DNA from: a virus
IMG/VR virus record: IMGVR_UViG_3300027792_000010
Length of the DNA: 64,000 nt
Strand: one strand, 5' to 3'
Below the pieces are notes generated by a model. That model was not told where the DNA came from. It made no database searches and saw nothing but the letters and a program-made list of their open reading frames with translations. This document shows positions 23,591 to 48,403 of the stretch, one piece after another. Position 1 is the first letter of the stretch. Each line of letters begins with the position of its first letter. The position numbers were made by a program, and so were the translations under genes.

Positions 23591-26500
23591 GCATAGCTGA
23601 ATTATGTGCTAATCTAATCTCTAAGGATGGTCTGGACATCGATAAGATTCTACATAAGAATATTATCGAGTTTGTAACTGCTCCTTGGGGATTGGGGCTC
23701 GGGACTCTTCCTGGTGTTCCTTCGTTATACCCATCTCAACGTTTTATACTAAAGGTATACTACGGGTTATCATTAGATAGGGGTAGTAATAGGGATATAA
23801 TAATAAAAGACCAATTCAATGAGCTGGAACTTTACAGATTTAATGAATACGAATATTTTAAGTTTTTGTATGAACAGGGTAGAATAAATGGAGCAGAAGA
23901 AGGAGTGCCCTATACAGATTTAACTTTAGTATGTGGTAGAAGATCTGGCAAATGTGTATGCGCTGGGACAATAGTTAATACTGATAAGGGTTTAATAGAG
24001 ATACAAAATTTAGGAGATCCTAAGGGTCCTGAGTATCAACCGTTAAAAATAGGTGTAGCTCAAGAGGGTGATAAAAAATCTGAATCTTCTTATTTTTATA
24101 ACGGAGGTGAGAGAGATACTATAAAAATAAGAAGCTTCTATGGTTTTGAAAATGAGGGGACACCTAACCATAGAATTAAAATATTGGATACAGACGGAGT
24201 AATAAAATGGAAGTATTTAGAAGATATAGAAGTAGGTGATATAGTATGTATTCATAGAAAATCAGATATGTGGTCTAAAGAATACGTAAATACTGAATAT
24301 TTAAGCAAAAAGTCACAAGGTCGTAAAGACAACATAAACTTACCTAAAGTTTTTGACAGTACTTGGGCAAAACTATTAGGTGTTCTATCTGGTGATGGTA
24401 CCTGGGCACTTAAAGGAGGAATACAAGTAACTGTAGGACCTTATAAAGAATGGTTAGACAAAGTTATAGATATTTTTAAAGAAACAGTAGGTGAGCCTAT
24501 CATAAAGGTAGATAAAAGAAGAGAGGTGTATAGCGTAAATTATTATTCTGTTGTAGTAAGAGAGTTTTTTAATAATATAGGTTATAATGTGGATATAAAA
24601 AGTGATACAAAAAGAATTCCATGGGTTATTATGCAATCACCAAAGCCAGTAGTAGCTTCTTTTCTAAGCGGTCTTTTTGAAACAGACGGTTGTATAGAAG
24701 CTAAAAAAAGTACTGTGTCTTTTTCGACAGCTAGCTTAAAATTAGCACAGGAAGTCCAGATATTACTGTTAAACTTCGGGATAGTCAGCAGATTAGTAGG
24801 TAAAATAAATAAAAGGTTTAATAAAACATACTATCATATATATACTTTAGGCTATAGGTCACTAAAAATATTTCATGATGAAATAGGTTTTATAAGTGAT
24901 AGGAAAAGAAAATTATTAGAATCCCGTATCAGTAAAGGATATAAGGGTAATAAAAGTAATATAGAGTCGATTCCTTATCAAAAGCAATGGTGTATAAATT
25001 TAAGAGAGTCTATTTATAAGGGCAAATCTAATGGTATAATTCCTAAAGATAAACCAGAACAAAGAAGAATGCTTTTAAGAGGTGCTATAGGTAATGTAAT
25101 AAAGACTAACAGTATAGAAGACCTCACATATCCTAGATTAGAAAAAATTATTTTAGTATCAAAAGAATTAGACGCTGACTCAGAGATAATTAAACATTTT
25201 GAAGAATTACAATATGCTAATTATTTTTTTGATAAAATTACAACAGTCGGTAAAAGCAGAAGTATGGTATACGATTTAAACGTACCTGATGGAGAATCTT
25301 TTGTAGCTAACGGCATGACTAATCATAATACTATGATCACTTCATGTATCATAGCCTATGAGACTTATAAACTTCTGAACATATATTGCCCACAAGAATA
25401 CTATGGTATAATGCCTGAGTCTGAGATCAGGATAACATGTGTTGCTACAAGTAAAGAGACAGCTTCTGAACTGTTTAATGCCGTTACAGGTCATATAGAA
25501 AGGTCTGAGTTTTTCAGAAGGTATAGGAATAAACCTACACAACAGAGAATGTTTCTTAGAACCCAAAGAGATATTGATAAATACGGAGCCTCGAAGAGAG
25601 CCTCTCTTCAGATACACGTTGCTCCTTGTAGTGCTAAAGGTCTTCGTGGGCACAATAATATTATAGTAGCTTTGGATGAGATGGCCTTTTTCTTTGAGGA
25701 TGAGATGAAAAAGGGAAAGATAGTTGCAAAGAGTAGCGATAGAAATGATAGGGCTATTTATACAGCTGTGACACCATCTATTGCTAAATTTAAGGGTAAA
25801 GATGGTAAGCCTCATGGAAAAGTTATAGCTATATCATCACCAAATACAAAATCTGGTAAGTTTTATGAACTATATGAATTCGCTTTTAACGAAGAAAATA
25901 CTAAATCTTTGATGATACAGGCTCCTACCTGGGAGATAGACAGTAATCTATCTTCAGAGTTTTTAAAGAAAGAACATGTGTCAAATAGAACAACGTTTTA
26001 TACTGAGTATGGAGCACAATTTAGTGACCAAGTAAAAGCCTGGATAGAAGATGCTGTTATTTTAAGACAGAATATTATCTCAGGGTTAAAGTATAGAGAT
26101 AGGTCATCACTTAGAGTACCTCATTATGCTGGAGTAGACGTAGGATTAAAAGGTGATGGAACTGCAGTCTGTATATGTCATTATGTTTCAGAATTAGTAG
26201 GTGGTGCCAGAGAAGATTTTTTGGAGGTAGACTGCTGCGATATAAGATATGCAGAGTTAGAAAAAAAAGCTAATTTTACCCCACAAGATATAGCAGATTG
26301 GCTGATAGATTATACAAAGAGATTTAATATAATAAAGGGTTTATTGGACCAATACTATGGAATGGGTATTATACCACTATTAGAAGATAAGGGTATAAAA
26401 CAGTATGAATACCGGGTATTCACTGAGGGTTTAAATTCTATAATATATCAAAACCTTCTTACTCATTTTATATCCTCAGCATTAAGACTGCCTGAGGATG

Positions 26501-26844
26501 AGAGAATAATAGATGGTAGAGTAGATAAAGATTCAGACTTAGTAAAAGAGCTATTAACGTTACAGGCGACACAAAGAAGTAAATATATAGTTAGCGTAGA
26601 AGCTCCAGATAGGTCAGGGGCACATGACGACATGAGCGATGCCTTAGCTCGTGCGGTATTTGTTGCTACCGAATTCAAGAGAAAAGGATACGGTGTAAAA
26701 TTGATTTCTGGAGGTAATTCTGGAGCCAAAGCATTTAAAGTATTAAGAGGCATCGAGATGAGAAAAGCAGAGTTATTGAGACCTACTCGTGGAAGAGTTT
26801 CCACAGGTAGGAGAAACTTCTCATCTGTGATGAGATCTTACTAA
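23587..26844 (+). CDS. terL: Terminase large subunit, intein-containing
   Basis: After splicing, Walker A reads GRRSGK-T; Walker B VALDEM; AISSP coupling motif; nuclease motifs GVDVG and HDDMSDA. Confidence 0.93.
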   Translation: MSIAELCANLISKDGLDIDKILHKNIIEFVTAPWGLGLGTLPGVPSLYPSQRFILKVYYGLSLDRGSNRDIIIKDQFNELELYRFNEYEYFKFLYEQGRINGAEEGVPYTDLTLVCGRRSGKCVCAGTIVNTDKGLIEIQNLGDPKGPEYQPLKIGVAQEGDKKSESSYFYNGGERDTIKIRSFYGFENEGTPNHRIKILDTDGVIKWKYLEDIEVGDIVCIHRKSDMWSKEYVNTEYLSKKSQGRKDNINLPKVFDSTWAKLLGVLSGDGTWALKGGIQVTVGPYKEWLDKVIDIFKETVGEPIIKVDKRREVYSVNYYSVVVREFFNNIGYNVDIKSDTKRIPWVIMQSPKPVVASFLSGLFETDGCIEAKKSTVSFSTASLKLAQEVQILLLNFGIVSRLVGKINKRFNKTYYHIYTLGYRSLKIFHDEIGFISDRKRKLLESRISKGYKGNKSNIESIPYQKQWCINLRESIYKGKSNGIIPKDKPEQRRMLLRGAIGNVIKTNSIEDLTYPRLEKIILVSKELDADSEIIKHFEELQYANYFFDKITTVGKSRSMVYDLNVPDGESFVANGMTNHNTMITSCIIAYETYKLLNIYCPQEYYGIMPESEIRITCVATSKETASELFNAVTGHIERSEFFRRYRNKPTQQRMFLRTQRDIDKYGASKRASLQIHVAPCSAKGLRGHNNIIVALDEMAFFFEDEMKKGKIVAKSSDRNDRAIYTAVTPSIAKFKGKDGKPHGKVIAISSPNTKSGKFYELYEFAFNEENTKSLMIQAPTWEIDSNLSSEFLKKEHVSNRTTFYTEYGAQFSDQVKAWIEDAVILRQNIISGLKYRDRSSLRVPHYAGVDVGLKGDGTAVCICHYVSELVGGAREDFLEVDCCDIRYAELEKKANFTPQDIADWLIDYTKRFNIIKGLLDQYYGMGIIPLLEDKGIKQYEYRVFTEGLNSIIYQNLLTHFISSALRLPEDERIIDGRVDKDSDLVKELLTLQATQRSKYIVSVEAPDRSGAHDDMSDALARAVFVATEFKRKGYGVKLISGGNSGAKAFKVLRGIEMRKAELLRPTRGRVSTGRRNFSSVMRSY
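23953..25329 (+). mobile_element. Intein (459 aa) with LAGLIDADG homing endonuclease in the TerL Walker A
   Basis: GK|CVCAGT...VYDLNVPDGESFVANGMTNHN|T; LAGLIDADG blocks LLGVLSGDGT and FLSGLFETDGC. Confidence 0.93.
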
Positions 26845-31587: not shown

Positions 31588-34500
31588 ATGGCAATGAATA
31601 AGCAGGGAACAGTAAAAACTAGAGTTGTTAAAGGTTCAAGGGACGATATAACTGTGCAAGATACTCACACTATTAAGCCATCTACTCGTTTGACGGAAAA
31701 AGAGGTTAAAGCTCGTCAGCTTAAGAAGTATGCTACTACTACTTTTGGTTTTGGGGCTAGAAACGCTTTTTCTGGTGGCGATATTAGTATGAGTTCCCAG
31801 GGAAACTTTTACTCACCACAGCTATCTACAGATTTCTTAGAGAAACCTCAAAACCTTAGAGAACGTAGAGCATGGTATCGTCAGTTCTACAATGGTAATG
31901 AGTTTGTAGGTGCTGCAATCGATCTTCATTCATCATTACCTCTTTCTAAGATAAGACTTGAAAAACCTAAATGTGAAAATGAGAAACTAGGAGAATATGT
32001 CTATACTTTTTTTGAAGATATGTGTAACGACGTAAATCTCTTTAAGGTACTAAGAGAAATGAGTCATGAGTATTGGTTGATGGGCAACTGCACAAGTCGT
32101 AATTCATTGATTTTAAATGAGTTACGAGGTTTTACTAAAGCAGAGGAAGTTAAAGTAGGCGACAAAGTTCTTACGCATAATAATAGATTTAGAAAAGTTA
32201 CAAAAAAATGCTCAAGAATAGCCGATAAAATTAATGAAATCTACTTATACCGAACATTTGATACATTAGAGCTAACGGATGAACATCCCGTAGAAGTTTA
32301 TAGAAATGGTAAATTTGAATTTATTCAGGTTAAAGACTTAACTATAAATGACTATGTAAGAGTAACCTGGCCAGATGAAACAATAGATGTAAGTACTATA
32401 AATTATTTAGAAGGATTTGAGAACATAAAGATAACTGAAACTGGTTATGATAAAGAAGTAACTATAAAAAGGGAGCGTCAAGAACAAGCTCAAATGTGTA
32501 GGGAAAAATTTCTTTTATGGCTGTCTCAGTTAAAAGAACCAACCGTTAAAACAAGGGATGAGATAGCTCAGGAATTAGGAACTACTCGCTGCACTTTAGA
32601 TAATGTTCTTTTACAGATAAAAAAAGAGATTGGTAAAATATTTTCTAAAAGACTCGGAGCTAAAGGGTATCAGAAGGGTTCACAAGTAGAGTGGCAACCT
32701 ATATCATATGAAGATTACAAAGAGATATATACTATAAAAAGAACTGAGAAGTTCATAGCCCCGCACACAATAGAGATAGATGAGGACTTTTGTTATTTAC
32801 TCGGGTACTGGTTAGGTGACGGTACTCTTGCTAGAGATAATGCAAGACCAGATAAGTGGGGAAGAGGTATTTGGAATATAGTATTTGGTGGTAAATCTGT
32901 AGAGCATGCTAATAAGATACGCTCTATACTTATTAAAAAATTTGGTGAGAGTGCAATAAAGGAGTGGGACACAGAAATAGAGTACTATGAAGGAAAATTT
33001 AGTACTATTAAAACTTTAAAAGTAGGGTCTAACCCAGCTTTTGTTGAATGGTGGGCTTCTCATTTTGGAGAGACCTATCACGGTAAAAATAAGAAAAGAA
33101 TACCTATTTGGATAAATCAACTACCTAAGAATAAGCTTTATGCATTATTGGCAGGTCTTATAGATTCTGACGGGTCTGTATCTGGAAAATACTATGCATT
33201 AGGATTAACATCAGATACTATAATTAGATCTGTAAGAGATATAGCATTAAAATGCGGTATTATGTGTAGTGCCTCTAAAAGAAAATGTAGGTATGATAGT
33301 AAACTTCTTAGAAATAAAATAAATAACTGTAGGGACTTTTATATAATTTTACTAAGAGGTGAGGACTGTATTAATACTATAGGTAATATAGCGATTAAGA
33401 AAATAATAGATAATCCTACAATGGTATTTAAAAGTAGTAAGTACATAAAAACTGAATCTGGTGATATTGCTTTTAAGGTAAAATCAATAGTAGAAAAAGA
33501 CTATAATGATTTAGTATATAATTTTGAGGTAGAAGAAGATCATACCTATCAGGTAAATGGTTTTAGTACACATAATTGTTTCATTTTCGCTGAAGATCAT
33601 GACCCTTATAATGTAGATGATGACGAAATAGAAAAAATAAAAGAAGAAGGTAGAGGGAGAGCTTTAATGCTCTACGATAAATTCAAGATAAGAGACAAAG
33701 ATCCTAACTATAAGGGATGGAGAAAACTAATCGTATTACCTCCTGATCAAGTTCGAATAAAGAAGATGCCTCTTACGGATGACTCGCTTGTAGAGTTCAT
33801 GCCTGACCCAGACACCAAGAAGATGATTACTGGGCAGCCTGATAGGATTTATGGTCAACCTCAAGGCATTAATGAGCAGTTTGAGAGATTAAGGGGCAAG
33901 CTACCTGAAAGCCTTATTGGAAAGCTGGAAGAGGGTGGAAGTATTCCTATGGATACTGACCCCTTCACAGGTTCTTTTGTGTTTCATCTGGCAAGAAAAA
34001 AGAGTCAGTATGAAACCCTTGGTGTTTCTATTCTTGAAAGATGTATAAATACTTTGCTACTTCAGGATAAGCTGCGTCAAGCACAGACATCTATTGCCAG
34101 CAGGCATATGACCCCAATTCGTATAGTATGGGGAGAGGAGCTTAGCGGAGACCAGACAGATGAGTTGAGGGAGCAGGTTGATATGGCTCTTGTGGACCCA
34201 GACTTCTCAATAATAGCTAACTATCAGGTTAACTGGGAAGAGATGGGAAGTGGCGGTCGTTTATTAGAGCTTTCGTCCGAATACGATCATATTGAAAACT
34301 CTCTGTTTGCCGGGTTGAATGTAACCAGAGAAATGCTTACGGGAGAAGGTACTTATTCAGGAAATAAGATAACTCTTCATATCATGAATAACATATACTT
34401 GAATTTTAGAGATGATTTACAGGAATATGTAGAGAATTATCTATTTAAGCCAATAGCCTATAGAAAAGGCTTTATAGAAAAAGATGAGTTTGGAAGAGAA

Positions 34501-34998
34501 AAGTTGATATATCCAAGATTAACATTTACAAGATTAGCTATCAAAGATAATGATGCCTACTTCGATCAGCTGTTTCAGTTATATCAAAAAGGTTCAATAT
34601 CTATTGATGTCATACTTGATATCTTTAACATCGATCCTGTGGCGACAAAAAAGAAACTCGAATCTGATCTATTCACAGTTAATGATCCGACATTCAATAC
34701 TTTCTTACAGGCTATGTACAATTCAGCTGGTAGTGATTTTGCTTCTAAGTATGATATTAATGGTGCTATGGCTAAGTATTTGAATGTTCCTGAGCTTCCT
34801 CCTGGAACACAAGGAGAAGAAGGAGGGCTTGGGGGTTTAGGCGGATTAGGTGGGGGTTCTGATGCGGGGGCTAGCAGGTTTGCCTCCACACTTAATAAGA
34901 GCCAAAAAGACGCAATGGCTAACTTAATGAAGTTGGCTCTTCAGAATCCAGATAAGTTGGATAAGTTAACCCAAATCTTCAAAAAGAAGCAACAGTAA
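31588..34998 (+). CDS. Portal protein, intein-containing
   Basis: VGAAIDLHS..P, EYWLMGN|CFIF after splicing, YETLGVSILERC, YRKGF; lies between terL and the protease/capsid genes. Confidence 0.85.
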   Translation: MAMNKQGTVKTRVVKGSRDDITVQDTHTIKPSTRLTEKEVKARQLKKYATTTFGFGARNAFSGGDISMSSQGNFYSPQLSTDFLEKPQNLRERRAWYRQFYNGNEFVGAAIDLHSSLPLSKIRLEKPKCENEKLGEYVYTFFEDMCNDVNLFKVLREMSHEYWLMGNCTSRNSLILNELRGFTKAEEVKVGDKVLTHNNRFRKVTKKCSRIADKINEIYLYRTFDTLELTDEHPVEVYRNGKFEFIQVKDLTINDYVRVTWPDETIDVSTINYLEGFENIKITETGYDKEVTIKRERQEQAQMCREKFLLWLSQLKEPTVKTRDEIAQELGTTRCTLDNVLLQIKKEIGKIFSKRLGAKGYQKGSQVEWQPISYEDYKEIYTIKRTEKFIAPHTIEIDEDFCYLLGYWLGDGTLARDNARPDKWGRGIWNIVFGGKSVEHANKIRSILIKKFGESAIKEWDTEIEYYEGKFSTIKTLKVGSNPAFVEWWASHFGETYHGKNKKRIPIWINQLPKNKLYALLAGLIDSDGSVSGKYYALGLTSDTIIRSVRDIALKCGIMCSASKRKCRYDSKLLRNKINNCRDFYIILLRGEDCINTIGNIAIKKIIDNPTMVFKSSKYIKTESGDIAFKVKSIVEKDYNDLVYNFEVEEDHTYQVNGFSTHNCFIFAEDHDPYNVDDDEIEKIKEEGRGRALMLYDKFKIRDKDPNYKGWRKLIVLPPDQVRIKKMPLTDDSLVEFMPDPDTKKMITGQPDRIYGQPQGINEQFERLRGKLPESLIGKLEEGGSIPMDTDPFTGSFVFHLARKKSQYETLGVSILERCINTLLLQDKLRQAQTSIASRHMTPIRIVWGEELSGDQTDELREQVDMALVDPDFSIIANYQVNWEEMGSGGRLLELSSEYDHIENSLFAGLNVTREMLTGEGTYSGNKITLHIMNNIYLNFRDDLQEYVENYLFKPIAYRKGFIEKDEFGREKLIYPRLTFTRLAIKDNDAYFDQLFQLYQKGSISIDVILDIFNIDPVATKKKLESDLFTVNDPTFNTFLQAMYNSAGSDFASKYDINGAMAKYLNVPELPPGTQGEEGGLGGLGGLGGGSDAGASRFASTLNKSQKDAMANLMKLALQNPDKLDKLTQIFKKKQQ
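32089..33576 (+). mobile_element. Intein (496 aa) with LAGLIDADG endonuclease in the portal
   Basis: GN|CTSRNS...VYNFEVEEDHTYQVNGFSTHN|C; LLGYWLGDGT and LLAGLIDSDG; extra HTH-like insert (RDEIAQELGTTRCTL). Confidence 0.93.
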
Positions 34999-40240: not shown

Positions 40241-40306
40241 ATAAAGAATTCCCGCCTTCGATGTGAAGGATTGGATGTTACACAATACAGTTAATGGAGG
40301 TTTACA

Positions 40307-40885
40307 ATGGCTATCGGAGAAATGAGTGGAATAGTTCAGGATAAAAGTTTTAATATCCTGTACAGAGTGACTCTAAACACTCTTGGTAATCTGACCGCTA
40401 CTGGTCTTACTCAGGACAACACAGGAACTACAGGTAATACTGCTCAGAAGGGAGCTAACACCCGTCTTTCCAGCGACACTCCTAAGGGTATCCTCGGTGG
40501 TTCAGTAGTTGCAGTTGATGCAACAGGTGGAAGTGGGTATATCGTAGCAGCTAGCGGTGCAAACCGTGTAGTGGGTATTGCTGAAAACAATGCAGTTGGT
40601 TATCCTTATGAAAGCTCCAGTGGCGTTGCTTCTGGCAAGCTTCCATACCTCTGCGGTTCTGGTTCCGTATTTGCAACTGATCTCTATGAGACTAGAAATG
40701 CAGCGAACTCTGCGGATATTGCTTATGCAGCTGGTAATGCTCTGTATGCTTCTGCTAACGGTCTCCTGACTAATCAGACACCTACAGCAGCTTCTATCGG
40801 CAGCCCTCTTGACGAGATTGTCGGTATTCTTCTTGTAGCCCCATCTTCAAGCGATCCTTTTATGGTCGTTCAGATGAGGATCTAA
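40307..40885 (+). CDS. Capsid decoration/cement protein
   Basis: Small G/A/S/T-rich beta protein (VVGIA..., G..LYA...GLLT, VGIL) directly before the major capsid gene. Confidence 0.6.
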   Translation: MAIGEMSGIVQDKSFNILYRVTLNTLGNLTATGLTQDNTGTTGNTAQKGANTRLSSDTPKGILGGSVVAVDATGGSGYIVAASGANRVVGIAENNAVGYPYESSSGVASGKLPYLCGSGSVFATDLYETRNAANSADIAYAAGNALYASANGLLTNQTPTAASIGSPLDEIVGILLVAPSSSDPFMVVQMRI

Positions 40886-40903
40886 GTAAGAGTAGTTTTT
40901 TTC

Positions 40904-40929
40904 AAGGGGCCTAAATACTTAGGCCCCTT
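40904..40929. other. Perfect 11-bp hairpin in the major capsid leader
   Basis: AAGGGGCCTAA-ATAC-TTAGGCCCCTT, no U-tract on either strand. Confidence 0.7.
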
Positions 40930-41080
40930 ATCAGATAAGATGAATATTTGTGTAGGATGACTAAAATACAGTAACTGAAAAGTATAGCTGAGTAGAGTCT
41001 CCTTACAAAATTCAATATAGGTCGCATCTAGCATCTGCTAGAATAGCGTAAGTTTTAAAGTCCTTTTTAGGAGGTTTTTC

Positions 41081-41962
41081 ATGGAACAGCAGATTACTAA
41101 TGAACTAAAACAGCAGATCATTGGTGAGTACATCAAGACCGCTGGCGGTCGTGCAAAGCTTGCCGCTTCGATGGTTCAGCCTTTACGTCTTCGTAGAGAC
41201 TATACTTCCGTAGCGCGTAAGGCTTTCTTGGTAGAACAACTCCCTGATGGTGCTCTCCCGATTTATGACAAAGATCCTAACGTTACAGCCTTTGTGGTTG
41301 GAGAAGAGGGTGAGAATATTCTTGCCATCACTCGTCCACGTAGGGTGATTTTTCCATTGTTCGAGATCGCATCTAACCCTGAGATCCCTTTGACTCAGAT
41401 TAAAGAAAGACGCTTTGACCTTATCGAGAGAAGTCAGGACCTCGCTAAAGCTCAGATTCAGGCTGCTGAGGATGGTCGTGCCTTTGATGTTATGGATGCA
41501 GTTGCAAGTAACGGTTTCGATAATCTCGGTGCCGCTTATGTGAATGCTCCTGTTAATGCTATGGCTCCTCTTACACCTTCTGACCTAATCGATGCATTCG
41601 CACGTATTGAGACTCACGACCTTCGCGTAGCAAGAGTGTTTTGTAATGCTATTGATTTCGCGGATATTCGTAAATGGGGACGGGACGTTCTGGACATCGA
41701 GACACAAGCAACATTGCTCAAAACAGGTTTGATGGCTACTGTTTGGGGTGCTCAGATCATCGTTACTCGTAAAGTAGCCCCAGGTTACATTTACGTTTGC
41801 GCAGATCCAGAGTTCTTCGGACGTATGCCTGTCAGAACTGAACTTACGGTATTGAGTGCAGACGATCCTAAGGCTCGTAGGATTGGGTTTAGTGTGTTCG
41901 AAAATTTAGGGATAGGCGCACATAATCCTTTAGCTATTACAAGAGTTAGAATCGCTCGATAA
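41081..41962 (+). CDS. Major capsid protein (HK97 fold)
   Basis: 293 aa with VGEEGE, FEIASNPEI, AEDGRAF and G.VWGAQIIVT..V.PG.IYV pattern; strong ribosome-binding site; followed by a terminator. Confidence 0.85.
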   Translation: MEQQITNELKQQIIGEYIKTAGGRAKLAASMVQPLRLRRDYTSVARKAFLVEQLPDGALPIYDKDPNVTAFVVGEEGENILAITRPRRVIFPLFEIASNPEIPLTQIKERRFDLIERSQDLAKAQIQAAEDGRAFDVMDAVASNGFDNLGAAYVNAPVNAMAPLTPSDLIDAFARIETHDLRVARVFCNAIDFADIRKWGRDVLDIETQATLLKTGLMATVWGAQIIVTRKVAPGYIYVCADPEFFGRMPVRTELTVLSADDPKARRIGFSVFENLGIGAHNPLAITRVRIAR

Positions 41963-41985
41963 TTAAGTAGTACTTGTTTTTTAAT

Positions 41986-42014
41986 AAAAAAGGGAGATTT
42001 TTTCTCCCTTTTTT
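41986..42014 (+). terminator. Bidirectional intrinsic terminator after the capsid gene
   Basis: AAAAA-AGGGAGA-TTTTT-TCTCCCT-TTTTT. Confidence 0.85.
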
Positions 42015-42023
42015 ATTTTTTAC

Positions 42024-42052
42024 TTGATAATGACCCGAATACACGGTATATT
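42024..42052 (+). promoter_or_regulatory. Class I-like promoter TTGATA-N17-TATATT
   Basis: 17-nt spacer; upstream of the 42071 gene, which has an AGAGG site. Confidence 0.6.
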
Positions 42053-42070
42053 ATACTTAGAGGTGTTACT

Positions 42071-43969
42071 ATGTATTCAGAACGTATTAAAGAAATACAA
42101 AAAAAAATTAGTATCGGCGTGACTTATACTGAGTTGTGCAAGAGCTATCCTATAACTAAAGCTCTTTACAGAAAACTTGGCGGGTCCTTTGTAAGACCTG
42201 TAAATACTAACAATGATATATTATCTTATATTGTAGATCCAAATTACAATATACTGAATAAAAATAATATTAGTAATATTGATCACGATGCTATTTTAGG
42301 GACTTTATTAGGGGATGCTAATATATATAAGATAACAGGTATTTACGACGATACCTATACATATTCTTTAGCGCATACATATGCTCAGATTGAGTATATA
42401 AAATTTCTTTATGAGTTATATAAACCATACACTAATAGGCTGCAGCTTAGAGAACCTTCAGATAATGATGGATTTAAGGATTACTGGATTTGTATTATAC
42501 TAAAATCAGACATTTTTTTTAAAACTTATTATGATATGTTTTATTCATATGATGCGGGCTTAAATAATAAGCAGAAATATGTTTTTACAGATAAGATAGC
42601 GGAGGGTGTTAATTGGAAGAGTTTATCGTTTTGGGTTATGGATGATGGTAATAAGTCTGGAAGCGGTAAGGGTGTATTTGAAATATCTATAGGAAAAAAA
42701 CCATATTATGAATTTAATGAAGTAAAAAGGTTTACAGAGATAGTATCCAATAACCTGAATTTCAAATTAAAAGCTACAGAAGAGAAGTCCTGTTACACTA
42801 TTAAAAATGATATGCATAATAGCAGTGAGGCTATATCTCAACTGTCTAAATATTTGTTACCCCATTTTCATTATAAATTAGGTGTTTTACCGGATGATTG
42901 TTATTATAACTATAGACACGCTAAATGGTTTAAAGACTGGGAGAAGAGCAAGCATAATATACAACATCCATTTTTGATAGATAGGACAGTGACGGATTAT
43001 AGAGAATCAGAAGATCCTATATTTAAAGTAAAATTCGAAAATGCTTTAAAAGTAAGAACTATAATAAGGGGTTTTCCTTTTTACGACCTATCAGAAGAGG
43101 AGAAGAGATACCACTGGGGTAATATAACCCGATATGAAGCTAAATTGGTAGATAAAAAGATTAGTGCAAGTCCTAAAGCTAATACTTTTCCTAGCTCTTT
43201 TATGAATCATAGATTTTATACGAAAATTGATAATAAACCAAGTCCTTATGAAGCCTTCTATGACCGCAAAAACTTAGAGTTGATTATACAGAAACAGGTA
43301 GATAGTGGGGATAATATAGAAAATAGTAATATAAGAAATGCTATAGGGTATTATAGAAGTCAAGTAGCTGGTCAGTTTAATCCTTGTTTTGCTAAATATT
43401 ATATTAATAAATACTGTGCTGGTGCGAGCGTCTTTGATCCGTGTGCTGGGTGGGGAGGAAGACTATGTGGGGCCGCTAGTTTAAATAAAAGTTATTACGG
43501 AATAGAGCCATATACTAAGACGTATGAGTCTTTGAAGGAGATGGCGGTTTGGATTAAGGGAAATACAGATTGTTTATCAGAAATATGCATATCTAACGGA
43601 GTAGCTGAGGATGATAGCTTTTTTAGTGGTTTGCTTTTTGATATGGCTATTACAAGTCCACCTTATTTCAATAAAGAGAGATATTGCAATGAGGATACAC
43701 AAAGTTATATAAGATACCCGCATTATGAGGATTGGAAAATAAAATTTTTTAAAAAAATGATATTAAATGTTTTTAATAGACTTAAAATCGGTTCTTATTT
43801 TATTCTTAATATAGCTGATGTAAATGATTATTCTTTAGTTTTAGATGCTATACTAATAGCTAAGGAAATAGGGTTTTTAATGGAAGACGTGCATAAAGCC
43901 TCAACTTTTAAATCTGTTACTAATTTCAGTAAGATGAACGAAACTTTTCTTATATTGAAAAAGGATTAA
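42071..43969 (+). CDS. LAGLIDADG endonuclease fused to an amino (N6A/N4C) DNA methyltransferase
   Basis: ILGTLLGDANI and LSFWVMDDG (LAGLIDADG_2 type); C-half FDPCAGWGGR (motif I), YYGIEP, ITSPPY (motif IV); no intein splice motifs. Confidence 0.85.
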   Translation: MYSERIKEIQKKISIGVTYTELCKSYPITKALYRKLGGSFVRPVNTNNDILSYIVDPNYNILNKNNISNIDHDAILGTLLGDANIYKITGIYDDTYTYSLAHTYAQIEYIKFLYELYKPYTNRLQLREPSDNDGFKDYWICIILKSDIFFKTYYDMFYSYDAGLNNKQKYVFTDKIAEGVNWKSLSFWVMDDGNKSGSGKGVFEISIGKKPYYEFNEVKRFTEIVSNNLNFKLKATEEKSCYTIKNDMHNSSEAISQLSKYLLPHFHYKLGVLPDDCYYNYRHAKWFKDWEKSKHNIQHPFLIDRTVTDYRESEDPIFKVKFENALKVRTIIRGFPFYDLSEEEKRYHWGNITRYEAKLVDKKISASPKANTFPSSFMNHRFYTKIDNKPSPYEAFYDRKNLELIIQKQVDSGDNIENSNIRNAIGYYRSQVAGQFNPCFAKYYINKYCAGASVFDPCAGWGGRLCGAASLNKSYYGIEPYTKTYESLKEMAVWIKGNTDCLSEICISNGVAEDDSFFSGLLFDMAITSPPYFNKERYCNEDTQSYIRYPHYEDWKIKFFKKMILNVFNRLKIGSYFILNIADVNDYSLVLDAILIAKEIGFLMEDVHKASTFKSVTNFSKMNETFLILKKD

Positions 43970-43973
43970 TAAG

Positions 43974-44804
43974 ATGGATGACTTAATTTGTAAAATATGT
44001 TTATTAGTAAGTGGTAAAGATTTGTCTAAACATATTAAAGAAGTACATAAAATGAGATTGAAAGAATATAAAGATATATATGGAGAGTATTTTAGTAAGT
44101 ACATTAGTGAAAAGAGAAAACAAACATGTTTGTTAAAGTACGGAAATGAAAACTATAAAAATGAAGAAGCACGAAAGTTATCTTTTGAGCTATATGAGGG
44201 AGGGCATCCTTTAAGAGATCCTTCTGTTAGAAGAAAAGCAGAAGAAACTAGTTTAAATTTATATGGGGAGGCTCACTACACAAATAGAGAAAAGGCTAAG
44301 CAAACAAATAAAGAAAGATATGGAGTTGAATATACATGTGCTGCACCAAAAGTGATTGAAAAAAGGATTAGGACTTTAATAGATAAGTATGGTAAAGTTT
44401 TTAATATTTCTGATCCTCACAATAAAATAGAGTCACCCGATGATTTTATAACTCGCTATAATAGTGGTGAAACTATTTCTAAACTAAGTTCTATGTATGG
44501 CGTATCAGAACCTACAGTATGTAGGTGGATTTCTGAGTTAAACTTAAAGAGGAGTGCGGTACTAAAGGGAGAAAGAGAGGAGATTTCTCCTGTACTCTTG
44601 GTTATTAGTTATTTCAAAACTTGTGCAGAGTTATGTAGGATACTTTCTTTTTACGAATATGGGAAAATTAAAGGATCTAAATATACTATTAAATTAAAAA
44701 GATTATTTAACTCAGGTAAAAAATTTAGCCACCTCAAGCAGGAATTATTTGATGTAGCATTAAAGGCTGAGTTACAAAAATTATTTTTAGATAAGCTACT
44801 TTAA
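43974..44804 (+). CDS. Zn-finger / KYG-repeat / HTH DNA-binding protein (homing-endonuclease-type binding modules, no evident nuclease)
   Basis: CKIC...HIKEVH, repeated K..T...KYG units, ISKLSSMYGVSEPTVCRW HTH. Confidence 0.6.
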   Translation: MDDLICKICLLVSGKDLSKHIKEVHKMRLKEYKDIYGEYFSKYISEKRKQTCLLKYGNENYKNEEARKLSFELYEGGHPLRDPSVRRKAEETSLNLYGEAHYTNREKAKQTNKERYGVEYTCAAPKVIEKRIRTLIDKYGKVFNISDPHNKIESPDDFITRYNSGETISKLSSMYGVSEPTVCRWISELNLKRSAVLKGEREEISPVLLVISYFKTCAELCRILSFYEYGKIKGSKYTIKLKRLFNSGKKFSHLKQELFDVALKAELQKLFLDKLL

Positions 44805-44828
44805 ACTCATTGTTCCAAATAGTATATT
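44800..44828 (+). promoter_or_regulatory. Class I promoter TTTAAA-N17-TATATT
   Basis: Exact motif upstream of 44880. Confidence 0.7.
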
Positions 44829-44879
44829 ATTTTGTTGAGTAATTTTTTATATCCATATTCATATTAAAAAGGAGTTTTT

Positions 44880-45170
44880 ATGCCTACAGAAAAGAAGCCT
44901 CTATCAAAAACGGCACGTATCCAGTTGGTACGTGAGGCAAAGAAATTGGTTGGTACCATGAATAAGACAAATATGGCGGAAGCCATTCGTGCGCTTAAAG
45001 CTGATGTTACTAGGGTAGACGCTCGCTCCATCGTGGATGAGGCTGTTACTGCGGTTAAGGCAAAGACTGTTGCTAAACCAAAGACTGTTGTGGAACCAAA
45101 GACTACTGCTAAACCAAAGACCGTTGCTAAACCAAAGACCGTTGCTAAACCAAAGACCGCTAAGAAATAA
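44880..45170 (+). CDS. Histone H1/Hc2-like basic DNA-binding protein
   Basis: K-rich tail of PKT(V/T)AK hexapeptides. Confidence 0.65.
   Translation: MPTEKKPLSKTARIQLVREAKKLVGTMNKTNMAEAIRALKADVTRVDARSIVDEAVTAVKAKTVAKPKTVVEPKTTAKPKTVAKPKTVAKPKTAKK
45060..45167 (+). repeat. 18-nt tandem repeat (about 6 units) encoding PKTVAK
   Basis: CCAAAGAC(T/C)GTTGCTAAA repeated. Confidence 0.85.
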
Positions 45171-45178
45171 TCAGTTCC

Positions 45179-45192
45179 ATAATCTTTTGATA
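45179..45192 (+). promoter_or_regulatory. Class II promoter variant (1 mismatch)
   Basis: ATAATCTTTTGATA upstream of 45242. Confidence 0.5.
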
Positions 45193-45241
45193 AAGGATGG
45201 TATGTATACTCTTACCATCCTTTATTATTTTAGGGGGAAAT

Positions 45242-45445
45242 ATGGCAGCTGTAAAATATGAGTGTGCTACTTGTAAGAGCGACCCTATTAAGAAAGAAGA
45301 TAACTTTGTTTCAATAGGCAAAGATTCAAAAGGCGCAAATATACAAGGTATAAGAAATATAGTAGATTGTAATAATGTAAGATTCTATAATAATCAAGTT
45401 ATGTGTAGAACATGTAATGCTATTGTCTATGAGGATATCAAATAA
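45242..45445 (+). CDS. Small Zn-ribbon protein
   Basis: CATC...CRTC; ATG 45242 behind GGGGG. Confidence 0.6.
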   Translation: MAAVKYECATCKSDPIKKEDNFVSIGKDSKGANIQGIRNIVDCNNVRFYNNQVMCRTCNAIVYEDIK

Positions 45446-45455
45446 TCTTTTAATA
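45442..45455 (+). promoter_or_regulatory. Class II (putative late) promoter
   Basis: ATAATCTTTTAATA upstream of 45496. Confidence 0.7.
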
Positions 45456-45495
45456 TAAACACATAATAATTAAGGATATTTTCATAAGGTGAACT

Positions 45496-46527
45496 ATGTC
45501 CAAACTTATTAGCTGTTATATTAGAAAATTAGCAAATGAACTCCAAGGTAAAACCTGGTCTGATAGGATCAAGGAAGAGTTTGACATTCATATAGACTCA
45601 GATACGAAAGTAGAGTATCTGATTAATCTGTATAATGACCTAAGCAAAATCCCCGCTAAGATTATAAAAGACTGTAAGATAAAGATTCTAAAGTTTGAAG
45701 ATTTAGGACCGTCAAAAGAGTATTACCCTAATCATGGGGTGTATACTAGTGATGGTACCCTAATACTGAACTATAGAATGTTTGATGATCCTGAGTTATT
45801 TGAGGACGGTTCTGGTAAGTCTATGAGTAGATTTACCCATACGCTATACCACGAGTTAGGTCACGGGTTTGATATGTTAGAGGGAGAAGAGTTCTCTCTT
45901 AAACCTAAATGGATTGAATTATCTGGGTGGTCAGAAGACCCTAAACCAGGACTTAAAAGAATTATTATTAGAGAGCAGGGATGCCCTGAAATAAGGGGGG
46001 AGTGGTTTTACGATCCTAATTCAGTGTTCTCACGTTTTTATGGTAAAAGGAATCCTTGGGATGACTACGCGGATACGTTTAGTTTTTACGTAGGCGGGTT
46101 GAAAGGTATAATATCAGATAGCAAAATTAAGTATTTTGATGATGTACTAAAAAAGTATTATACCCAAAAGTTAGCTATTGTTATACCTCCCCCAAAAGAT
46201 GAAGAAACAAGAAAAGCCTTAGAGAGATATATGTCTGATAAGACCATAGATGAGTATAGAAAATATCTTCATACTTATTTAGATAAAGATGAGGAGTTAC
46301 TTTCCTCGAAAGGATATGATATAGTAGATCTTACAAGAAATAAATTGATGAAGCAAGAAGAAAAAGTAAAGATGATGAGAGATGAGTTGAGTAAAGCATT
46401 AAGTCAGCACCCAACAAGAATGATTAAAAAAGCCTCAGAAGAGATATTAAAGGTATGTCATAATTTATTAGGTATAGGTAAAGTCCGAGAATCTGAATAT
46501 CTAATGTATCTAATAAATGAAAGATAA
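45496..46527 (+). CDS. Zincin metallopeptidase-like protein (anthrax lethal factor-like) with C-terminal extension
   Basis: LYHELGHGFD (HExxH) and FYGKRNPWDDYADTF, which resembles YG.TN..E.FAE.F. Confidence 0.65.
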   Translation: MSKLISCYIRKLANELQGKTWSDRIKEEFDIHIDSDTKVEYLINLYNDLSKIPAKIIKDCKIKILKFEDLGPSKEYYPNHGVYTSDGTLILNYRMFDDPELFEDGSGKSMSRFTHTLYHELGHGFDMLEGEEFSLKPKWIELSGWSEDPKPGLKRIIIREQGCPEIRGEWFYDPNSVFSRFYGKRNPWDDYADTFSFYVGGLKGIISDSKIKYFDDVLKKYYTQKLAIVIPPPKDEETRKALERYMSDKTIDEYRKYLHTYLDKDEELLSSKGYDIVDLTRNKLMKQEEKVKMMRDELSKALSQHPTRMIKKASEEILKVCHNLLGIGKVRESEYLMYLINER

Positions 46528-46546
46528 AGACTAACAGGAGGGTAGT

Positions 46547-46858
46547 ATGTGGGGCATGTTTAAGGGACCGGATGGGAAAATTAGTATGATGCGTGCATCC
46601 ACTTTCATAGTCGTTATATCTATTATGGGAGTTTTTGTAGCCCATAATATTGTGGCTATGGTAGCGGGTGCCGCCTTTGTCTCAATAGGTTTCTCAGAAG
46701 CAGGTTTAATTGCTGCTGCTATAGGAGTAAAAGCTTATCAGTCTTCAATAGAAAATAAAGATGGTAAAGCAGCCGCAGATTTAAGTGCAGGCTCAGATAT
46801 ATCAGAGACAGCTTTAATGGTACCTGAGGAAGATGTATCTAAAGTGAATAAGAGGTAA
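46547..46858 (+). CDS. Two-TM holin-like membrane protein
   Basis: GKISMMR...TM...TM...GVKAYQSSIE, then an acidic tail. Confidence 0.5.
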   Translation: MWGMFKGPDGKISMMRASTFIVVISIMGVFVAHNIVAMVAGAAFVSIGFSEAGLIAAAIGVKAYQSSIENKDGKAAADLSAGSDISETALMVPEEDVSKVNKR

Positions 46859-46862
46859 AATT

Positions 46863-47831
46863 ATGCCCAATCCTAAGGATTATGACAATAAAAATAAATT
46901 CATGCATGATAGTATAAAGACTAATATAGCTGAAGGAAAGAAAAGAAATCAGGCTATAGCTATCTCTATTAGTATGTGGAATAGTAGGAATAAGAAGAAA
47001 AAGGGTAAAAGAAAAACTGCTTCGGAAATACTCAGGGAACTCTCTATGAGAATAGCTTTCACTTTTCTAGGCAGGGAACCAACAGAGGTAGAAAAGAAAA
47101 AGTTGGAACAGGTATTTGATAAGTATCCCCAGGAAGAATTGAAACAGTTATCATCCCTTATAGATAGGTGGTGGTATAATTCTAGCGACTTAATGACTAA
47201 AAATCCTGATAAAATGAAACTTTTTGTTATGTCATTCTACAATGAAGTGCTTAAAGACTTTTTGATGAAGCACTCAGACGATAAAGAATTACAGGAGATT
47301 AAGAAAATTATTACTGATTTAGGAGACCAGAATCAGAGGATACACCCAGCTTTTGTTATTAGGTTGATTAGGGATGCTATAAAGGAAGAAGCTATGGAAA
47401 AAAGGGCCGCAGGTAGTATAGTTTATTATGGATTATTTTTTGTACCCCCAGAGTCTATTAAACTTTTTAATGCGGCACAAAGTGGACCTTTATTAGTTAA
47501 AAAAATTCCTGATCCTCATATAACTTTTGCTTTTAAACCAGCTCCGGGTAAGCTTCCTCCAGAAGATTTATGGGGGGAAAAGTTTGATGTAGTAATAACT
47601 GGTTTGGGTAATGACGGAAATAACCAAGGATATAAAGTAGAGATTCCAGAAGAGTTGAAAAAATACTATTTTAATGATGCTATACCACACATCACGCTAT
47701 CTGTTTCAAACATTGGAAAACCTGTAAATACAAGGAACCTTTTATTTAAAGATATTCCTAATTTCAAGGTACAGGGTATATTTGGATACCACAACGGAGC
47801 AAAAGCAGTATTAGAAGAGAGTCCTAAATGA
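46863..47831 (+). CDS. Multi-module protein with C-terminal 2H phosphoesterase
   Basis: DPHITF and IPHITLS (two HxT motifs). Confidence 0.75.
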   Translation: MPNPKDYDNKNKFMHDSIKTNIAEGKKRNQAIAISISMWNSRNKKKKGKRKTASEILRELSMRIAFTFLGREPTEVEKKKLEQVFDKYPQEELKQLSSLIDRWWYNSSDLMTKNPDKMKLFVMSFYNEVLKDFLMKHSDDKELQEIKKIITDLGDQNQRIHPAFVIRLIRDAIKEEAMEKRAAGSIVYYGLFFVPPESIKLFNAAQSGPLLVKKIPDPHITFAFKPAPGKLPPEDLWGEKFDVVITGLGNDGNNQGYKVEIPEELKKYYFNDAIPHITLSVSNIGKPVNTRNLLFKDIPNFKVQGIFGYHNGAKAVLEESPK

Positions 47832-48403
47832 AGATATCCATATCACACAAGATAAGATACAACGCTATGAGGTTAGCAAAAAAAGGAGCTAACTATTCAA
47901 AGTCTAGCTTACAATACGCTCTTCCAGAAGAGACTGCTAAAAGGATACTAAAGTGGTCAAAGGATAATATACCTGATGAAGAATTGTATACTGAAGAAGA
48001 GGATAAGGGAAGAGAAGATGAAATACATATAACGATCTTCTATGGAATATTGGATGAAGATTCAGGCTCTACAGTTAAGGTTTTAGAAGATCACAATATA
48101 AAGTCTTTCCCTGTTCAACTTTCCACAGTTACTGCCTTCCAGAATAAGCCTGAATATGATGTTCTTAAAGTAGATATAGAGTCATCAGAACTCCATAAGA
48201 TTCATAAGCTTATAGAGAGATACTTGGATACTAAGAATGACTTTCCAGAATATAAACCCCATCTTACCTTAGCATATTTGAAAAAAGGATATGCTGATAA
48301 GTACATAGGGAAAAAAGATTTTCAGGGTATTAGTGTGATTGCGGAGTCTGTGGAGTTTTCTTCTAAGAACGGCACAAAAACGAATATCAAATTAAAAAAG
48401 TGA
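47828..48403 (+). CDS. 2H phosphoesterase (2'-5' RNA ligase / Acb1-like)
   Basis: EIHITIFYG and YKPHLTLAY. Confidence 0.85.
   Translation: MKISISHKIRYNAMRLAKKGANYSKSSLQYALPEETAKRILKWSKDNIPDEELYTEEEDKGREDEIHITIFYGILDEDSGSTVKVLEDHNIKSFPVQLSTVTAFQNKPEYDVLKVDIESSELHKIHKLIERYLDTKNDFPEYKPHLTLAYLKKGYADKYIGKKDFQGISVIAESVEFSSKNGTKTNIKLKK

Follow-up and report, generated by a model that had tools for sequence, protein, structure and literature searches.

Organization of the capsid-distal locus

Between positions 42,024 and 44,804 of the window, the whole stretch of 64,000 nucleotides of viral DNA that was analyzed, lies a cassette of two genes. The first encodes a chain of 632 residues combining a predicted LAGLIDADG nuclease with an amino-methyltransferase (MTase), and the second a putative DNA-binding partner. 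The phage is a jumbo phage with a contig of about 202 kb, and the cassette is located between the terminator of its capsid gene and the next late gene. The features of the locus are listed below, with residue numbers referring to the product of the gene under which they are given.

41,081–41,962, + strand: major capsid gene; its 3′ end, 41,830–41,962, is synonymously recoded beside the cassette
41,983–42,017, + strand: intrinsic terminator of the capsid gene, with a T run behind its 15-pair stem
about 42,024–42,027: left insertion junction, placed by aligning the window to the empty site of the relative L081
42,024–42,052, + strand: sigma-70-like promoter of the cassette, TTGATA-17-TATATT
42,060–42,065, + strand: ribosome-binding site of the fusion gene, GAGGTG
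42,071–43,969, + strand: LAGLIDADG–MTase fusion gene, a single ORF of 632 residues
residues 1–50: N-terminal three-helix module
residues 64–260: predicted LAGLIDADG nuclease, with D82 at 42,314–42,316 and D191/D192 at 42,641–42,646
residues 261–333: linker
residues 334–632: MTase, with motif I at 43,433–43,462 and SPPY at 43,655–43,666
43,974–44,804, + strand: partner gene, 276 residues, beginning 4 nt past the fusion stop
residues 6–25: Ros/MucR-like C2H2 finger, with C6, C9, H20, and H25 invariant
residues 40–150 (about): DUF7487 "YG" repeats (Pfam, 49.5 bits, cut-off 27)
residues 159–199: HTH_23
residues 205–276: conserved C-terminal domain
about 44,799–44,804: right insertion junction, at the partner stop codon, from the same alignment

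The promoter of the cassette is the sole match to TTGAYW-N17-TATAWT within the window. The same TTGATA-17-TATATT arrangement also precedes sister cassettes in the relatives L082, L098, and L160, and TTGACT variants are found in L120 and L123. The GC content is 26–35% over 42,000–44,800, compared to 41–48% in the capsid genes, and a short direct repeat, (T/C)ACTT, is present on both sides of the cassette. The initial annotation of this DNA had placed the cassette right after the capsid terminator, in AT-richer DNA and behind a "class I-like" promoter, and had described the product encoded 4 nt downstream of the fusion as a zinc-finger/KYG/HTH protein devoid of a nuclease. The terminator stem, the base composition, and the finger, DUF7487, and HTH_23 of the partner all agree with that description; the cassette does have its own promoter, although the site seen is sigma-70-like and the label "class I-like" was that of the annotation.

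The fusion gene is an intergenic ORF behind its own promoter, positioned inside neither a self-splicing intron nor an intein. In line with the earlier claim that intein motifs are missing, no intein/Hint domain was matched in the fusion by Pfam, and no intron or any other RNA family was found by Rfam in 20,000–48,000; a search of the fusion against NCBIfam also gave no match. The fusion did not arise through misassembly: neither a stop codon nor a frameshift breaks the frame between the two domains, and independent metagenome contigs are letter-identical over the LAGLIDADG-to-MTase boundary, as well as over both cassette junctions. In the metagenome runs, which left parts of the stretch uncovered, no contig joined across the cassette in an empty form. 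A metatranscriptome run contributed just two 151-nt contigs (42,549–42,835), too few to infer transcription.

Domains of the fusion protein and its partner

The N-terminal half of the fusion matches Pfam LAGLIDADG_2 (PF03161) over residues 74–245 (E 1.8e-13, 51.2 bits, cut-off 25), and its profile matches in the PDB are I-SceI and I-WcaI, with E values from 1.5e-19 to 5e-18 (2e-18 for I-SceI). In the AF2 model (pLDDT 90.4, pTM 0.85) the nuclease adopts the pseudo-dimeric alpha-beta-beta-alpha-beta-beta-alpha fold, and its superposition by Foldseek on I-SceI (3oor, 5a0m, and 1r7m) yields TM scores (target) of 0.72–0.74 over ~215–240 columns. The GDA and MDDG segments align with those of I-SceI, where the positions of D82 and D192 are those of the catalytic Asp residues. 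D82 and D191/D192 are invariant in all 27 full-length homologues, among which the motifs LLGDA (with D82), MDDG (with D191/D192), FDPCAGWGGR (residues 455–464), and SPPY (residues 529–532) as a whole are invariant or almost so. The 632-residue chain is a predicted monomeric LAGLIDADG nuclease of the I-SceI type joined to an SPPY amino-MTase. A single ORF joining a two-motif LAGLIDADG domain to an amino-MTase had been claimed by the initial annotation, and both the ORF and its motifs were found where it had put them. The search for the domain architecture that it had proposed places LAGLIDADG_2 above the Pfam cut-off and leaves the MTase of this particular fusion marginally below it.

That marginal match is to Pfam N6_N4_Mtase (PF01555), over residues 524–632, with 25.5 bits; the cut-off of 26.7 is exceeded by sister fusions (30.4, 44.8, and 47.3 bits). 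The order of the motifs in the fusion, I and then IV, is permuted with respect to the Pfam model. DPCAGWG (SAM-binding motif I) and TSPPY (catalytic motif IV) are invariant in homologues, and the domain is modeled (pLDDT 91.2) as a class I Rossmann fold. The closest solved folds found with VIA-align are those of the tRNA m2G enzymes Trm11 (Z 19.5, rmsd 2.5, 177 aligned) and TrmN (Z 17.7), followed by many generic Rossmann class I MTases with Z of about 15; no DNA MTase is present among the best 50 structural matches. As a gene of its own, the MTase module is very widespread among phages, with more than 578 viral loci containing it, and homologues from giant viruses and Vibrio phages bear the annotation N4-cytosine DNA MTase. 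The MTase of the fusion probably acts on DNA, as an m4C or m6A enzyme.

In the partner, no nuclease domain was detected in any profile library searched, including Pfam, PHROGs, and NCBIfam. In at least eight distinct sister loci, LAGLIDADG–MTase proteins carry the C-terminal domain of the partner at their own C terminus. Structural neighbors in the ESM Atlas that include DUF7487 carry HNH, Vsr/DUF559, or Mom, and at the same spot in the locus L124 an RRXRR nuclease is combined with DUF7487 and the C-terminal half of the partner. The partner may supply an additional DNA-binding module, of the type carried in cis by other phage homing nucleases.

Empty sites, the recoded capsid gene, and the occupancy of the site in relatives

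The closest relative, L081 (capsid 99% identical at the amino acid level, protease 90%), lacks the cassette; the order there is capsid gene, terminator, and next gene, with ~150 nt between. The terminator of L081 occupies the same place as that in the window, with an entirely different sequence. The sites of L092 and L094 are likewise empty, so that empty-site alleles, which the initial annotation had proposed to look for in relatives, do exist. No close pair with capsid genes more than 90% identical in nucleotides differed in occupancy, other than the window and L081.

Comparison of the capsid gene in the window with that of L081 reveals 36 differences in the last 120 nt and 91 in the 759 nt upstream (30% vs 12%; Fisher p = 2e-6), all those in the distal tract being synonymous, without a single amino acid change. 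The maximum-likelihood change point of the divergence is at 41,829. GC3 decreases to 0.28 over codons 251–293 and to 0.08 over the final 13 codons, with the codons shifting toward the AT-rich usage of the cassette. This tract of ~130 nt is a probable footprint of recombination or co-conversion, and the recoded 3′ end of the capsid gene is a candidate region for the target of the predicted nuclease. No donor lineage matching the tract was found among 80 relatives. Comparison of the relatives did not reveal a cut site near the 3′ end of the capsid gene, nor was a nucleotide motif evident that would separate the empty from the filled capsid 3′ ends, synonymous sites being saturated among these relatives.

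To describe the occupancy of the site more broadly, 46 non-redundant relatives were fetched by their capsid protein, each with at least 2.5 kb downstream. An ORF with LAGLIDADG and MTase begins no more than 1.6 kb past the capsid stop in 20 of them, mostly within ~220 nt; five others have LAGLIDADG with another added domain or none, two have the MTase only, and 19 have neither. Derivatives with either domain by itself are present at the locus, those with only the MTase in L131 and L161. Different types of cassettes fill the same slot in close relatives, with LAGLIDADG–Mom, LAGLIDADG–ParB_N, and double-MTase proteins among the sisters, and several HTH domains are found in sister proteins. Tandem arrays of two to four cassettes are also present, and the order of cassettes varies between the arrays. 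Other homing elements are abundant in this genome and its relatives, with inteins in the terminase and portal, as well as insertions in the genes for capsid and protease.

In 33 distinct fusions, with identities down to 23%, GD[GAS] is retained in 31, with the remaining two lacking the first LAGLIDADG motif by pattern match, and both xDDG/xGDG and SPP[YF] are retained in all 33. The fusion in the window is 33–47% identical to any other member, so that this exact cassette cannot be shown to have moved recently between backgrounds. Compared with its counterpart in L082 it is 42% identical, with 46–47% for the fast-evolving neighboring genes, and among type-A members the identity of the fusion correlates weakly with that of the capsid (Spearman 0.48, p = 0.03). 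The fusion had initially been treated as a one-off; instead, it belongs to a large viral family with 1458 representatives at E < 1e-30, and its clusters in the ESM Atlas number 255 and 57 members. Cultured carriers were not found: Megablast of 40,300–46,600 against GenBank phages and tblastn of the N-terminal 333 residues of the fusion against phages gave no match, and in the cultured relative Tunturi_5 (capsid 48%) the gene that follows the capsid is an ordinary hypothetical one. No paper describing this family was found in a literature search that was not exhaustive.

Proposed function and comparison with known systems

Homing endonucleases and restriction–modification (R-M) systems are two classic types of selfish nucleases, the former normally protecting themselves by disrupting the target site and the latter by methylation. 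The initial annotation had regarded the cassette as a selfish, free-standing element with its own promoter and a DNA-binding partner, and this claim is supported by the empty site, the recoded flank, the hotspot, and the conserved active sites. Positions 42,024–44,804 probably represent a free-standing mobile element of the homing type, of the kind engaged in intronless homing. The family as a whole is a widespread viral one, in which a predicted long-site LAGLIDADG nuclease is fused to a modifier (the MTase, or Mom or ParB_N in sisters) and comes and goes at a hotspot beside the capsid gene of huge phages.

What the fused modification domain contributes can be explained in more than one way. 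The initial annotation had offered two functions, either of which may be right: an R-M-like element keeping out competing phages, or an MTase that hitch-hikes on a homing nuclease. Our preference, held tentatively, is for a homing cassette with the DNA-modification domain attached as a passenger. The host-type promoter of the cassette would drive its transcription, with the partner gene on the same transcript as the fusion. In a mixed infection the nuclease would cut relatives lacking the cassette within or close to the conserved capsid 3′ end, and recombinational repair would then import the cassette along with some of the capsid sequence beside it. The MTase would mark the DNA of the carrier phage, paying for the upkeep of the element through protection against restriction. 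Since the MTase is encoded in frame behind the nuclease and would be lost with any mutation truncating the latter, the fusion would help to keep the nuclease gene intact. In this scheme we infer cleavage, the location of the target, DNA as the substrate of the MTase, and the threat that methylation averts.

Several observations are consistent with such a passenger. The architecture and fold match I-SceI and I-WcaI (Foldseek TM 0.73), the site is empty in L081 and the adjacent capsid flank is recoded (30% vs 12%), the hotspot is filled in 20 of 46 relatives and supports tandem arrays, both active sites are kept in distinct fusions, and the cassette with both its junctions is identical in independent metagenomes. 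The MTase module is common alone in phages, where it is annotated as an N4-cytosine DNA MTase, it persists alone at the locus in L131 and L161, and relatives at the same spot have LAGLIDADG joined to Mom, known from phage Mu as the classical anti-restriction modifier. In phage metagenomic islands, moreover, no gene classes vary more than orphan MTases and homing endonucleases (PMC7468147). On the other side, the divergence of the fusion from L082 is similar to that of the neighboring genes, so that L081 could conceivably have lost a cassette that had long been inherited vertically; the nearest folds of the MTase are those of tRNA m2G enzymes, with no DNA MTase in the best 50; and the protein itself is just under the N6_N4_Mtase cut-off. 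In addition, a passenger as such requires no covalent fusion, and the recurrent fusion of LAGLIDADG to three different DNA-handling domains would fit functional coupling better than a simple passenger.

Such coupling is the essence of a single-chain R-M-like element that both cuts and protects, a possibility that we consider less likely. The long target of the nuclease would contain the short motif of the MTase; the carrier would keep its target in a methylated form and be immune, unmethylated co-infecting relatives would be cut and either converted or excluded, and the fusion would ensure that every nuclease made comes with its antidote. Repeated fusion of LAGLIDADG at this locus to an amino-MTase, Mom, ParB_N, or a double MTase, with both catalytic centers conserved across the 33 fusions, points in this direction, as does the pTM of 0.85, suggestive of an integrated body in the AF2 model. 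An intergenic, free-standing nuclease need not destroy its own target by inserting, and target base methylation is known to block an engineered LAGLIDADG nuclease of the I-CreI type (PMC3827243). However, the recoded capsid 3′ end would provide immunity at the level of sequence, with no need for methylation, members of the MTase family mostly stand alone in other phages, derivatives with only the MTase or only LAGLIDADG both persist at the locus, and a shared specificity domain is not evident. It is possible, though less likely than not, that the fusion represents the first LAGLIDADG-based R-M-like element, with epigenetic self-immunity provided by the fused MTase, or by Mom in sisters, rather than by disruption or mutation of the site.

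The question raised is whether a homing endonuclease can use epigenetic self-immunity. If it does so by methylation, these proteins would add a new class to the R-M-like enzymes and be natural rare-cutters gated by methylation, and, if they both cut and protect, the cassettes stacked after the capsid gene would form an arsenal in competition between phages. If it does not, the element would still be a selfish nuclease that secures its maintenance by fusion to an anti-restriction gene. Either reading helps explain the spread of orphan MTases among phages.

A resident accessory operon, inherited vertically and not mobile now, is an improbable alternative. A LAGLIDADG–MTase gene would have followed the capsid gene in an ancestor, with the present diversity created by fast divergence, duplications, and occasional deletions, of which L081 would be one. 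The weak correlation between fusion and capsid identities and the similarity of the 42% identity with L082 to that of fast-evolving neighbors agree with this proposal, and the flanking (T/C)ACTT repeat could mediate deletion; against it are the jump in divergence and the compositional shift exactly at the left flank of the cassette, the completely different terminators of the filled and empty alleles, and a GC content 10–15 points below the flanks, as well as the varied types of cassettes in one slot, their variable order in arrays, and the wealth of other homing elements in this genome and its relatives. Least probable is a domesticated LAGLIDADG that, as in maturases and other inactive derivatives, serves only for sequence-specific DNA binding and tethers the MTase to particular sites or acts in regulation without cleavage: such domains do bind long sites with high affinity, and the extra HTH modules of the fusion protein, the several HTH domains of its sisters, and the DNA-binding partner would suit this role, but inactive LAGLIDADG derivatives usually lose the metal-binding Asp residues, which in both motifs are invariant in the 27 homologues and kept in essentially all 33 fusions, and the pattern of presence and absence, together with tandem stacking, resembles selfish spread.

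Among characterized enzymes, I-SceI and I-WcaI share with the fusion their fold as well as the two motifs, including the catalytic Asp of each. They are, however, proteins of ~235 residues from mitochondrial group I introns with no other enzymatic domain, whereas the fusion is free-standing and intergenic and includes an N-terminal helical module, an MTase of 300 residues, and a separate DNA-binding partner. The position of the cassette is closer to that of the Seg and Mob genes of T-even phages, which are also intergenic, have their own promoters, lie between conserved genes, and are patchy among close relatives, with a tract of divergence in the adjoining conserved gene of the kind left by co-conversion. 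Seg and Mob nucleases belong to the GIY-YIG or HNH families and are not known to carry a modification enzyme; the putative homing nuclease described here is a LAGLIDADG protein fused to an MTase.

The type IIG/IIC enzymes (MmeI or Eco57I type) similarly combine an endonuclease and an amino-MTase in one polypeptide, and a self/non-self logic may be common to both. They are cellular defense genes with a nuclease of the PD-(D/E)XK type, one shared specificity domain, and a short site. In turn, the nuclease of the fusion is a LAGLIDADG protein rather than PD-(D/E)XK, expected to recognize a long site through its own DNA-recognition surface; no TRD-like domain was found in the fusion with Pfam, PHROGs, or NCBIfam, and the element is phage-borne and probably mobile.

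Methylase and homing nuclease also share one gene in the ORFs of the mycobacteriophage ShiLan gp65 type, which contain a "lone" LAGLIDADG without an intein or intron, as well as HNH insertions (PMC11855218). There the nuclease is inserted inside a pre-existing methylase gene that is itself the homing site (PMC11855218), whereas in the present fusion the nuclease is N-terminal, with a conserved linker, and the whole unit of nuclease, MTase, and partner comes and goes beside the capsid gene. Finally, an intron-encoded HNH nuclease of PhiPA3 serves interference competition (PMC11620839). Although this enzyme belongs to a different family, is intron-borne, and lacks a modification domain, it is likewise a homing nuclease of a jumbo phage, able to damage a co-infecting relative, and so provides a model for the benefit that the cassette could bring to its carrier (PMC11620839).

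Locus and architecture of the fusion protein

The source of the window is a jumbo phage; the record of the fusion protein itself is on a 202-kb contig, and the nearest GenBank capsids belong to an uncultured 485-kb phage (74%), Tunturiibacter phage Tunturi_5 (48%), and Bacillus phage G (40%). The two cassette ORFs are flanked by the major capsid gene on one side and by a small gene for a lysine-rich protein on the other.

Features of the capsid-cassette region (window positions)
41081-41962, major capsid gene (PHROG 'major head protein', E 2e-55)
41983-42017, 15-pair terminator of the capsid gene
42024-42052, cassette promoter TTGATA-17-TATATT, then GAGGTG, then ATG
42071-43969, + strand, fusion gene, ORF of 632 aa
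43974-44804, + strand, partner gene, ORF of 276 aa, starting 4 nt past the fusion-gene stop
44880-45170, small lysine-rich gene on the other flank of both cassette ORFs

The initial annotation had placed the fusion ORF and its closely following partner after the capsid terminator in AT-richer DNA, and this layout is confirmed, with GC of 26-35% across the two genes vs 41-48% in the capsid region. The 96-aa lysine-rich protein that comes next carries a C-terminal tandem (K/E)PKT(V/T)A repeat, a region with no alignment to L081, the closest relative. Farther on, a 191-aa protein (47828-48403) matches the anti-CBASS 2H phosphoesterase Acb1 (37.8 bits, cut-off 27), and the 322-aa ORF upstream of it (46863-47831) has two H-x-T motifs at its C terminus.

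Pfam assigns LAGLIDADG_2 to residues 74-245 of the fusion (51 bits) and N6_N4_Mtase to residues 524-632 (25.5 bits, slightly below the cut-off of 26.7). A search of 5.8 billion proteins yielded 26 more full-length homologues with the same two domains (33-47% identity, 607-656 aa), and in their alignment motif 1 GD (G81, D82) and motif 2 W-x-MDDG (D191, D192) are invariant, as are D456, P457, and G460 of motif I, as well as T528, S529, and P531 of motif IV, where position 532 is an aromatic Y or F. The AF2 model of the fusion is confident (pLDDT 90.4, pTM 0.85), with a nuclease part that overlays I-SceI and I-WcaI (TM 0.72-0.74), both also matched by sequence profile (E about 1e-18) with the catalytic Asp positions in register. 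The methyltransferase part, modeled separately (residues 334-632, pLDDT 91.2), is in that model a class I Rossmann amino-methyltransferase, with motif I ahead of motif IV. In amino-methyltransferases of the m4C kind, motif IV usually reads SPP(Y/F). Although Trm11, TrmN, and Trm14, all tRNA m2G enzymes, have the closest solved folds (Z 19.5-16.8, generic methyltransferases reaching ~15), relatives found in sequence and viral structure libraries come from phages and giant viruses and bear the annotation N4-cytosine DNA methyltransferase; these annotations and the SPP(Y/F) motif make DNA the likely substrate.

Neither Pfam nor Rfam gave an intein or intron signal in the fusion or its locus. The proposed joining of LAGLIDADG to an SPPY amino-methyltransferase without intein motifs is borne out. 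Letter-identical contigs carrying the cassette, from a second freshwater-sediment study and a 2024 soil/wetland study, span the capsid-cassette junction, the LAGLIDADG-linker-methyltransferase boundary, the junction between the two genes, and the right junction; the stop or frameshift between the domains that would have spoken against a fusion is absent from these independent contigs.

Relatives, promoter, and partner

The fusion is not a one-off but belongs to a broader set of LAGLIDADG-methyltransferase proteins. Profile searching among 1.84 billion representatives brought up 1458 proteins with E<1e-30, and most of the best 150 of these are 600-950 aa long and match over both domains; the ESM Atlas holds clusters of 255 and 57 members, all viral, auto-named 'LAGLIDADG/DNA methylase'. 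Among 33 distinct fusions (23-54% identical), GD[GAS] is kept in 31, and xDDG/xGDG and SPP[YF] in all 33. The stand-alone 300-aa methyltransferase module is much commoner (>578 viral loci). In ten loci of other phages (L047, L069, L070, L072, L075, L080, L194, L207, L209, L218) its gene is interrupted by a ~940-nt insertion, perhaps an intron or a hidden endonuclease of the ShiLan type (cf. PMC11855218); in L047, the single case that was translated, the insertion is full of stops in the methyltransferase frame.

With the capsid protein as query, 80 viral contigs were retrieved; the counts cover the 46 non-redundant relatives whose sequence runs on for 2.5 kb or more past the capsid gene. A LAGLIDADG-methyltransferase ORF starts no more than 1.6 kb after the capsid stop, mostly within about 220 nt, in 20 of the 46; in five, LAGLIDADG stands at this spot alone or with other domains, two have a methyltransferase only, and 19 neither. 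Nearly all fusion loci fetched with the fusion as query also lie behind the same capsid gene. L082, L098, L161, L162, and L163 carry two to four cassettes in an array. Other joinings at this spot are LAGLIDADG-Mom (L087/L088, 10229-12187; second gene of L098, 9410-11530), LAGLIDADG-ParB_N (L085, 8887-10647; L099, 8975-10633), and LAGLIDADG with two methyltransferase domains (L116, 3594-6881), while L124 has an RRXRR nuclease fused with a partner-type DNA-binding module.

The sole match to TTGAYW-N17-TATAWT in the 64-kb window is the one at the cassette. Since TTGAT(A/T)-17-TATATT also precedes the start codon of sister cassettes in L082, L098, and L160, with TTGACT variants in L120 and L123, and the proteins behind this promoter are only 35-45% identical, the suggestion of a promoter belonging to the cassette itself is upheld by conservation rather than by one consensus match.

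The partner has an invariant Ros/MucR-like C2H2 finger, 'YG' repeats (DUF7487, 49.5 bits), HTH_23, and a conserved C-terminal domain; domain searches found no nuclease domain, in agreement with its earlier description. It travels with the shorter, type-A fusions in at least eight loci, at 26-52% identity and often with the stop codon of one gene overlapping the start codon of the next, whereas in the longer type-B fusions (800-911 aa) the C terminus of the nuclease-methyltransferase chain corresponds to its C-terminal 70-115 residues (BLASTP 3e-11), which by sequence is a Rosetta-stone link. Because of this link, and because DUF7487 is elsewhere joined to HNH, Vsr/DUF559, and Mom, the partner can be read as a separated part of the element with a DNA-binding or regulatory function.

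Probable mobility of the cassette

In L081 (capsid 99% and protease 90% identical in amino acids), capsid gene, terminator, and next gene follow each other with ~150 nt between and the cassette absent. Alignment with the window sets the insertion limits at about 42027-44799, the left junction being straddled by the -35 hexamer and the right one holding the partner stop codon. Against a background divergence of about 12%, the final 120 nt of the capsid gene differ by 30% (36/120 differences vs 91/759 upstream, Fisher p=2e-6; change point 41829), with zero amino-acid changes and with window codons moving to the AT-rich usage of the cassette. Such a tract is what arrival of the cassette by recombination, along with a piece of donor capsid gene, would be expected to leave; recoding of a nuclease target would fit equally.

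The cassette is probably a homing-type mobile element; purely vertical inheritance with loss and a domesticated DNA-binding role for the LAGLIDADG part, whose motifs are so widely kept, are both quite improbable.

Homing-type inserts are found elsewhere too. The oversized large terminase (23587-26844, 1085 aa) and portal protein (31588-34998, 1136 aa) contain inteins with LAGLIDADG_3/Hom_end homing endonucleases (~aa 177-581 and ~210-663, respectively); counting the cassette, 25 kb of this genome contain at least three LAGLIDADG elements. The capsid gene of some relatives (L105, L106, L107, L122, L226) is interrupted past codon ~26-31 by a ~1-kb insert encoding LAGLIDADG pieces, and the prohead protease gene is split by ~1.2-kb inserts past aa ~106 or 175 (L085-L091, L099, L105, L108, L113); all of these inserts are likely to be homing-endonuclease introns or inteins.

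Role of the methyltransferase

We tentatively favor, at somewhat below even confidence, a methyltransferase carried as a passenger, which would give the carrier an anti-restriction benefit and, being fused downstream, would make truncations of the nuclease costly. This fits the abundance of stand-alone methyltransferase homologues, the Mom fusions, and the recoded flank. That the nuclease and methyltransferase of one chain cut and protect, methylation guarding against cutting, seems less likely, although it better explains the recurrent covalent fusion to modifiers and the constant retention of both active sites, and there is precedent in an I-CreI-derived LAGLIDADG nuclease that methylation blocks (PMC3827243).

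A literature search found no paper describing this fusion family. The nearest published case is that of mycobacteriophage methylase genes with an in-frame LAGLIDADG on its own or a hidden HNH inside them (PMC11855218), an arrangement different from that of the fusion in the window.
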